Source of the DNA: a virus
Lineage: Duplodnaviria; Heunggongvirae; Uroviricota; Caudoviricetes
IMG/VR virus record: IMGVR_UViG_3300021400_000028
Span: 1-42,249 of that record
Direction: 5' to 3' (one strand)
Length of the DNA: 42,249 bases
Part shown: in pieces, positions 735-1,260 of the stretch
Layout of the letters: each line of letters starts with the position of its first letter
Position numbering within the stretch: position 1 is the stretch's first letter
Made by a program: the position numbers and the translations under genes
The notes under the pieces: generated by a model
Told to the model about the DNA's origin: nothing
Seen by the model: only the letters and a program-made list of their open reading frames with translations
Database searches by the model: none

Positions 735-789
735 TAAATAATTATGAAACGATTACCACATCTCTATCTTTCGATAGAGTGAGGCAATT

Positions 790-1256
790 TTTTACCACTA
801 TAGCTTTCGCTACCAACAATAAAATTTCATTACTCCACTCATACTTACATGTTTTTGGCTACTATTTTTGTAACTGCGGGTTTTTATATTTCAGACCAAT
901 CCCGTCTTAGATTTATGGACTTTAATAGTATGTTTTGATATTGTTGTTTGTAGTCTGGGACTGTATCTTGACCGTATTGAAATCTAGCTAGATTATCCAA
1001 CTCTTTCACAAGGAACTCAATCCTTGCCACCATCTTGAAGGATAAATTTCAACTTAGGCCCCTCCTGTATCTCGTCTCTACACACTGTCTAAGGTGTTAG
1101 TCGGGCCTGGATAACATTTAAACTCAGCTATTCCCCTTGTGAGTCCTATAACATTGGTTCGGTATAAGCATATAATATCAGAGGTATTCACCCCACACTC
1201 TTACGAGCAGCGACTTTGGACATAATATTACTTAGCTTCCACCGAATTAGGGAGGT
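790..1256 (-). ncRNA. Group I intron-like ribozyme core, intergenic and apparently degenerate or repurposed
   Basis: Minus strand elements in canonical order: P AATTCGGTGGAAGC (1235-1248), Q GCTTATACCGAACCA (1155-1169), R GTGTAGAGACGAG (1071-1083), S AAGATACAGTCC (958-969). Helices: P3 CCTCC/GGAGG, P4 TTCGGT/ACCGAA, P8 TTGAAAT/ATTTCAA, P9.0 ACTAC/GTGGT, plus a TAGC-GAAA-GCTA hairpin (801-812). Confidence 0.75.
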
Positions 1257-1260
1257 TATT

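Follow-up and report, generated by a model that had tools for sequence, protein, structure and literature searches.

At positions 1257-753 of the minus strand of the DNA analysed here, a 42,249-nucleotide stretch of a Caudoviricetes virus, a gut phage (IMG/VR record IMGVR_UViG_3300021400_000028; hereafter the window), lies an element that is probably, to judge from its sequence, a conserved, non-splicing and rearranged derivative of the group I introns which interrupt the anticodon loops of transfer RNA (tRNA) genes in phages. Group I introns are textbook selfish ribozymes and, the lariat-capping ribozyme aside, we know of no natural case in which their scaffold has been kept for a use other than splicing. 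The window element belongs to a small set, here called A-type, whose members share a hairpin attached behind P9. That it is a selected and functional RNA which does not splice appears quite probable; that it cleaves itself at this hairpin is suggested only tentatively. All coordinates are window positions on the minus strand unless another record is named.

A group I core outside any gene

A preliminary description of this DNA, made from the letters alone, had reported group I landmarks in canonical order, and these are borne out by the core map, by the alignment with a second copy in the same genome (copy B, below) and by about 45 homologs: the core from P3 to P9 is complete between 1257 and 753. 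The 5' strand of P3, AACCUCCC (1257-1250), pairs through C1255-C1251 with G1061-G1065 of the 3' strand AGGAGG (1066-1061), which makes the P3/P7 pseudoknot. J3/4 (UAAUU), P4 and P5 with an extension hairpin occupy 1249-1158 (helix map from the Rfam alignment of the relative L013), J3/4-P4 reading UAAUUCGGUG at 1249-1240 and P5'/P4' reading UAUGCUUAUACCGAACC at 1172-1156, with P4 formed by U1246-U1241 and A1163-A1158. P6 and its extension follow at 1157-1093 and are near-identical in the relative L088. J6/7 and the 5' strand of P7 (...GUAGAGACGAGAUAC, starting with GUGUAGAGAC) lie at 1092-1067, where P7 comprises G1078, the bulged A1077 and G1076-A1075-C1074, followed by the variant segment GAGAUAC. 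P8 (GGCCUAAGUUGAAAU ... AGAUUUCAAUACGGUC; 1060-1046 and 985-970, with a branched extension in between) has a base of GGCC 1060-1057 with GGUC 973-970 and a distal stem of UUGAAAU 1052-1046 with AUUUCAA 983-977. J8/7 (AAGAUA) and the 3' strand of P7 (CAGUCC) make up AAGAUACAGUCCC, also given as AAGAUACAGUCC, at 969-957, and the putative guanosine-binding site is kept, with G1076:C959 beside the bulged A1077 and with A1075:U960 and C1074:G961. The P9 domain (956-794), closed by ACUAC 954-950 with GUGGU 798-794, holds a variable insert and the conserved L9-type GAAA hairpin GGUAGCGAAAGCUAUA (814-799).

The elements at which an intron would be joined to a gene are absent. The first conserved base stands four bases past the TAA of a complete open reading frame (ORF) at 1261-1617, and no internal guide sequence (IGS), P1 or P2 was found upstream of P3, homology beginning at AACCUCCC. 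ARAGORN, run with introns of up to 1500 nucleotides (nt) allowed, found no split tRNA at the element, and its flanks contain no tRNA halves and no tRNA 3' exon; the earlier remark that the RNA begins just after a stop codon and interrupts no visible gene thus stands. At the 3' end an A-rich linker (793-788) holds the omega position, A791, and the window reads GUGGU-A-A-A where the family has GUGGU-A-N-G, so that the reported replacement of omega-G by A is confirmed. A 35-nt hairpin at 787-753, UUGCCUCACUCUAUC-GAAA-GAUAGAGAUGUGGUAA, ends in GUGGUAA and is reached from P9 through a linker of 5-6 nt; this is the second GNRA hairpin followed by GUGGUAA of the preliminary description, which we refer to as the tail.

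Two further claims of that description have to be amended. It had seen no U-G pair for P1, which is correct for the 5' end, but the 3' tail bears a P1-like helix with a U·G wobble. It had also counted a missing U in P7 among the lesions, and this must be withdrawn: GACGAGAUAC/GAUACAGUCC is a common variant, also present in the tRNA members L015, L016, L041, L045 and L048, which carry omega-G. The P7 of copy B reads GACUACUAC with GAUAGAGUCC; relative to it, a C:G pair is swapped for G:C and there is one extra A, the G[A]GAC/GUCC part being unchanged.

An intron family in phage tRNA genes

The virus record that opens with the window is 170,249 bp long and has terminal repeats of 107 bp; copy B is carried by the same strand and, counted across the ends of the record, lies about 2.3 kb further downstream (G000:C1:167935-168660; minus strand of L002, about 2085-1360). 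With introns allowed, ARAGORN calls here a tRNA with a 637-nt intervening sequence, whose host gene we identified by eye as tRNA-Leu(UAA) from its Leu-type D arm and long variable arm. The gene is split as CUU|intron...GUGGUACG|AAAAUCCCU, at the classical site between U34 and A35 and with a final G. The window element aligns with copy B in register from just past P2 to GUGGUA; the core blocks are 90-100% identical and the inserts unrelated.

Using an exact 16-mer from J6/7-P7, we found 48 viral loci, and nhmmer confirmed about 45 homologs (E from 1e-27 to 3e-7) with one further fragment at 3e-4. More than 40 family introns are carried by IMG/VR contigs of gut and rumen phages (L005-L052, 4.9-412 kb), several of which hold two or three copies. 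Most members sit in the anticodon loops of tRNA genes, namely Leu-UAA, Leu-UAG, Arg-UCU, Lys-UUU, Gln-UUG, Ser-UGA, tRNAs with a CAU anticodon (Ile/Met) and others; in these the insertion is always after a U (U33, U34 or U36) and the end reads GUGGUA-N-G. The family measures 370-720 nt from P3 to the 3' end, giving introns of roughly 420-980 nt, with inserts located in L1, P5, P6, P7, P8 and P9. In a survey of prokaryotes with one genome per species (185,579 species), three of 38 matches were real, so that the family is almost confined to phage contigs.

The fold is supported by covariation among 42 unique sequences, in which P3, P4, P5, P8, the closing stem of P9 and the L9 hairpin show compensatory double changes and pairing in P3, P4, P5, P8 and P9 amounts to 94-100%, except for one P5 pair (29/36). 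P3 pairs vary between CG, UA and UG, each being paired in 33-36 of 35-36 sequences, and P8 is 100% paired save for one cell, with AU to GC double changes. P7 is invariant under the search pattern used and is flipped from C:G to G:C in L088. Exon and IGS change jointly as well (ACUU/GAGU, GACU/GGUU, CAU/GUG).

No Rfam 15 family reached its gathering score anywhere in the window, copy B was likewise missed, and a blastn comparison of the region with 50,697 phage records of GenBank was without matches. The preliminary description had proposed a covariance-model search and held that a lack of hits would speak against its group I reading. There was indeed no hit, but this reflects the weakness of the models on an insertion-rich family and not a missing fold: the full RF00028 Intron_gpI model gives L013 31.1 bits (gathering score 50) with an E-value of 5e-6 in a 701-nt search. 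The window element thus shows the core order, covariation and G-binding pair of a group I RNA, and lacks a 5' P1, omega-G, an interrupted gene and a gathering score in Rfam; insertion in a tRNA and the GUGGUA-N-G end, which define the anticodon-loop intron family, are found in copy B and most homologs and not in the window.

Some members deserve separate mention. The copy B intron, which is also overlooked by ARAGORN at default settings, has about 190 nt inserted in the P1 loop; this insert ends in ACUU|AAA beside the IGS, and that end suits P1 better than the true end of the exon, GACUU|UAA, with which a U·U adjoins the wobble. Only two contigs in prokaryote genome bins carry members, L109:1965-2938 on a 286-kb contig of a Bacteroidales metagenome-assembled genome and L107, a contig of 35 kb assigned in binning to Wujia sp.; an 887-nt intron in tRNA-Leu(UAA) is present in one and two intron-bearing tRNA genes in the other, and prophages, mis-binned phage contigs and host copies are all conceivable sources. 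On related phage contigs, three loci beside tRNA clusters match other structured RNAs, with a partial GOLLD RNA match (72.6 bits, truncated by the end of the locus) at L022:2215-2488 and full transfer-messenger RNA genes (107 bits each) at L041:5509-5910 and L013:5687-6059.

The A-type elements and their tail hairpin

We defined the A-type as the family core with no omega-G at the standard distance and with a tail of the form UUGCC, 10 nt, GAAA, a pairing strand and GGUAA. The window element has this form. Scans for GUGGUAAAA followed by UGCCU recovered A-types in two complete phage genomes (G001, 176,795 bp; G002, 103,909 bp), one fragment and four metagenome contigs, and the more divergent variant L088 was reached through an ortholog of the upstream ORF. 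Together they represent six distinct sequences (the window, L027/L061, L019/L057, L059, L060 and L088), in all of which omega is A or the G is displaced. The preliminary description had suggested looking for homologs that share the lesions and covary elsewhere, and the six A-types, with their losses of 5' P1/P2 and of omega-G, are such homologs. Compensatory changes within the A-types occur in P7 (L088, C:G to G:C), in P8 and in the P9/L9 hairpin. The 5' ends are not uniform: in the window copy, L027 and L088 the element begins at P3 and has no IGS, and L019 keeps IGS, P2 and a P1-like AUAUCUU|AAG upstream.

The tail itself is under covariation. Across five aligned tails, eight of the 14 pairs changed on both sides and 95.7% of the cells are paired, a value reached by 0 of 500 shuffles and compared with 31-44% in slid controls. 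The base of the hairpin never varies (U786:A754, G785·U755, C784:G756, C783:G757); it is followed by a U782·U758 mismatch and a bulged A761, and among the seven loop-proximal pairs six show compensatory double changes, C779:G762 being kept or mispaired in the five tails. L088 keeps the base and the 15-nt strand length, with a rewired middle.

The tail resembles the 5' segment of the family in several respects. The UUG-N12-GAAA spacing is identical in 34 family P1-P2 segments and in all tails, the family segment reading UUUG-AGU-GC-A-[6-bp stem]-GAAA-[stem]-AUGUAG-AACC and the tail UUG-CCU-CA-C-[stem]-GAAA-[stem]-GAUGUGGU-AA. Its 3' strand, GAUGUGGU|AA, resembles family J2/3 (GAUGUAG-AA). The end ...GGU|AA, set over UUGCC, gives a U·G wobble and then A:U, with a second A:U in four of the six tails, and the context of this wobble is like that of the many family 5' splice sites which read CUU|AA.

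L037:6109-6759, a member within tRNA-Leu, is the one tRNA-embedded copy that has A for omega-G (GUGGUACA|AAAAUCCCC), and its 3' exon appears intact. Its splicing may be impaired, or it may represent a step on the way to the A-type; in a short core tree it stands closest to the A-type pair L027/L008.

Persistence and genomic context

In G001 and G002, both rated 100% complete, the A-type is the only family copy, and since these genomes hold no splicing copy, gene conversion cannot explain the conservation of the A-type there. A 719-amino-acid (aa) protein of the window phage shows 42-49% identity to its counterpart in G001 and can scarcely be aligned in G002, and despite this divergence of proteins A-type core blocks of 20-45 nt are identical. 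The A-types are located in tRNA regions, with an intact tRNA-Leu(UAA) about 20-80 nt downstream in G001 and L088 and a tRNA cluster upstream in G002.

The genes near the window element are all on the minus strand. The upstream ORF (1261-1617, 118 aa) has homologs of 123-139 aa that align end to end at 40-47% identity, among them the ortholog beside L088 (47%). The protein is conserved and, as it is complete, the ORF is ruled out as an exon. Its homologs share an invariant C-terminal motif, KKSKLSRSQRE. Pfam and PHROGs searches of six neighbouring ORFs, this one included, gave no function or family. A suspected tRNA-like stretch at about 1625-1665 was dismissed, having no matching 3' half and no ARAGORN call.

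Downstream of the tail, a terminator-like hairpin ACUACUU...AAGUAGU followed by a U run, UUUUUAUUU, was read from the sequence at 735-700, and in L019 and L060 the tail is followed by comparable hairpins with U runs. A consensus terminator scan, which demands three G-C pairs and a short loop, did not call the hairpin at 735-700, and sigma-70 and terminator consensus scans at three loci gave nothing above shuffles that would fit RNA ends. Minimum free energy folding of the whole region, a method that is uninformative for pseudoknotted RNA, gave z-scores of -1.65 (minus strand) and -0.68 (plus strand).

Elsewhere in the same genome, at G000:C1:142354-142431, ARAGORN calls a tRNA of undetermined type with the four-base anticodon taag amid seven ordinary phage tRNA genes.

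Presence in RNA libraries

Gut and rumen metatranscriptome assemblies of several studies contain the stretch. With 100% identity to the window, contigs span 799-1484 (X3, depth 10.3) as well as 838-1091 and 1062-1484 (X4, depths 56.7 and 31.8); RNA contigs of neighbouring stretches have depths of 2-7. Window-identical contigs reach from inside the upstream ORF, ending there at 1484 in two studies, into the ribozyme, and the tail region 700-798 is uncovered in X3 and X4; contig ends were not used as evidence for an RNA end.

No contig in the RNA libraries joins across the element. Contigs of other family members join GGUA-NG to IGS-P2-P3, and X3 record 11 (726 nt, aligned with window 1046-1257) has one P3 block at each end, the repeat period being about 703 nt; these are likely intron circles of other members or tandem copies. 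One low-depth contig, from another variant, connects 755 to P3 through 16 other letters and could come from a circle or from a tandem copy. Between GGUA and UUG, A-types have a linker of 4-6 nt and the family's junction contigs one of 6-7 nt. That tRNA group I introns form circles is well documented (PMC13168695).

Proposed mechanism and alternative explanations

The order of parts in the A-type is that expected of an intron circle opened between P2 and P3, in J2/3, of which L019 would be a 1.1-unit version. It is possible, if doubtful, that the A-types are natural, DNA-encoded and circularly permuted group I ribozymes, GTP-dependent (guanosine triphosphate) and either self-cleaving or 3'-end-forming, in which IGS and P2 have moved behind P9 as a built-in P1 substrate. 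We infer the permutation, the docking and the cleavage. The tail would mimic the stacked P1-P2 helices, sealed and attached behind P9, and would dock in the core by way of the GAAA loop and the wobble pair, and the G site, devoid of omega-G, would be free for GTP. With the core intact and the G site without omega-G, the simplest reaction would be attack by free GTP after U755, with a predicted cut at U755|A754. Such a cut would free the ribozyme from the downstream sequence, which in two relatives is tRNA-Leu(UAA).

Several observations weigh against our reading of the element, the proposed cleavage included. The ends and the strand of the RNA, and any cleavage, are beyond the reach of the RNA data, which are assembled contigs. 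Two further IMG/VR scans for A-type tails returned chance matches only, leaving six variants known. A covariance model of family IGS-P2-J2/3, which gives 51 bits to the P2 of copy B and 44 bits to L019, finds in the tails a local match to the hairpin and GAAA only (8-12.8 bits, E 0.36-7), so that the mimicry rests on spacing and pairing and homology of the tail with P1/P2 is not established; the tail could possibly derive from the variable arm of tRNA-Leu. A tree of the 134-nt core, too short to resolve, does not group the A-types, and it is conceivable from the sequences that their cores arose by mosaic recombination or had independent recent origins. The G-to-A change at omega in L037 indicates that plain decay occurs in the family. 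The window copy has one private extra C after the 3' strand of P7 and a G·A apposition within its P7 extension. Finally, an Rfam 15 search of 500-1800 relaxed to E<=10 found no group I-like family, only three sub-threshold matches (SNORD36, SraG and mir-1264).

Simple decay must be considered in this light. The element could be a functionless pseudogene left by a duplicated or rearranged intron-bearing tRNA-Leu, its conservation being due to youth, hitch-hiking or recombination with live introns. That every splice element is gone would fit such a remnant, as would the change in L037, an otherwise tRNA-embedded member, the rarity of the A-types, their closeness to tRNA genes (in two cases an intact tRNA-Leu(UAA) follows shortly downstream), the unresolved core tree and the private C of the window copy. 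We nevertheless regard decay as rather unlikely, as a derived tail with eight compensated pairs and an invariant wobble base has been kept in six lineages, and core blocks remain 90-100% identical while inserts and flanking proteins have diverged to 40-49% or past recognition. The A-type is moreover the sole family copy in two complete genomes, P7 was flipped in a compensatory manner in L088, and the depth in RNA libraries is raised. The slight preference of the preliminary description for a repurposed scaffold over decay is therefore reinforced by six diverged lineages which share the splice-specific differences and covary in tail and core, although one of its lesions, that in P7, no longer counts.

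A selected RNA need not be catalytic, and the structure could instead serve as a nuclease-resistant 3' end of the upstream messenger RNA or as a decoy or platform that binds some factor of the host or phage, for instance a protein of tRNA processing or of defence. Co-assembly with the 3' part of the upstream ORF (799-1484), the conserved length of a tail whose GAAA loop is that of a docking element, and the lack of omega-G and of a 5' P1 are all consistent with such a role. A mere scaffold, however, needs no J8/7, no bulged-A/G:C site and no splice-like U·G wobble, all of which are invariant or compensated in A-types, and no partner is known; we consider this alternative improbable, somewhat more so than decay. 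It is hardly credible that the element is an ordinary intron, spliced in cis or in trans, whose exons were overlooked, the 5' exon with P1-P2 lying elsewhere or the 3' site being a downstream G. L019 with its IGS, P2 and P1-like segment, and a G near the GGUA motif (GGUAG) in L088 and L019, might point in this direction. Against it, the upstream ORF is complete, neither ARAGORN nor inspection of the flanks revealed parts of a tRNA, an IGS is altogether missing from the window copy, L027 and L088, the RNA contigs include none that joins across the element, and the downstream G positions are not conserved among tails.

Comparison with known systems

The family shares its core helices, the J8/7-P7 and J6/7-P7 sequences and the GAAA loops on P2 and P9 with the bacterial anticodon-loop introns of tRNA-Leu(UAA) and tRNA-Ile(CAU), such as those of cyanobacterial and plastid trnL and of Azoarcus (doi 10.1101/2020.01.27.920355; PMC13168695). 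Copy B and most homologs sit as classical tRNA-Leu(UAA) introns, CUU|...G|AAAA, but the family differs from the bacterial introns by its length, its large inserts and its near restriction to phages. The window element differs further in lying outside any tRNA, with no 5' exon, 5' P1/P2 or omega-G, and its tail hairpin is not described for bacterial tRNA introns. The subgroup is presumably IC3-like.

With the lariat-capping ribozyme GIR1, the A-type has in common the concept of a group I-like core which has no conventional P1 or splice sites and would perform a non-splicing reaction. Unlike GIR1, the window element is neither inside another intron nor upstream of a homing endonuclease gene, and its core is of the unmodified splicing type, with a predicted G attack at a U·G wobble instead of 2'-5' branching. 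Membership of GIR1 is not indicated: there is no Rfam match at gathering scores, no surrounding intron and no endonuclease gene. The GIR1 family, RF01807, is presumably included in Rfam 15.

In part order the element resembles the 5'-truncated circular group I intron RNAs of Tetrahymena and Azoarcus (PMC13168695): a circle opened between P2 and P3 gives the order P3...P9, omega region, IGS and P2, as here. Unlike these RNAs, the window arrangement is encoded in DNA, conserved and devoid of omega-G. Engineered permuted intron-exon constructs are split in a loop of the core and keep both splice sites, whereas the window element keeps neither. Naturally permuted group II introns of bacteria provide an example of a genomically encoded permutation that changes the products of a ribozyme (PMC8637638); they are, however, of a different class and chemistry and still back-splice exons, none of which are evident at the window element. 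The most fitting label for the element is that of a phage RNA derived from group I introns, apparently permuted and non-splicing.

Significance

For group I introns of bacterial tRNAs, 21 types are on record (doi 10.1101/2020.01.27.920355), and crAss-like and Jug gut phages are rich in introns within protein genes (PMC7886860, PMC12880540). In the literature searched, no description of the phage tRNA intron family was found. The present analysis brings to light a large family of long group I introns that interrupt tRNA genes of gut and rumen phages, and, because Rfam and default tRNA finders miss this family, such tRNA genes are absent from standard phage annotation.

The A-types would offer a small natural set for probing how a group I core behaves when its G site is empty and a P1-like helix is tethered to it. 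A conserved, free-standing phage form that is dead for splicing and intact in its core would show that the group I fold can be domesticated and, if the proposed reading is true, it would join the lariat-capping ribozyme as the second case in nature of a group I scaffold put to new use, here in the tRNA regions of phages.

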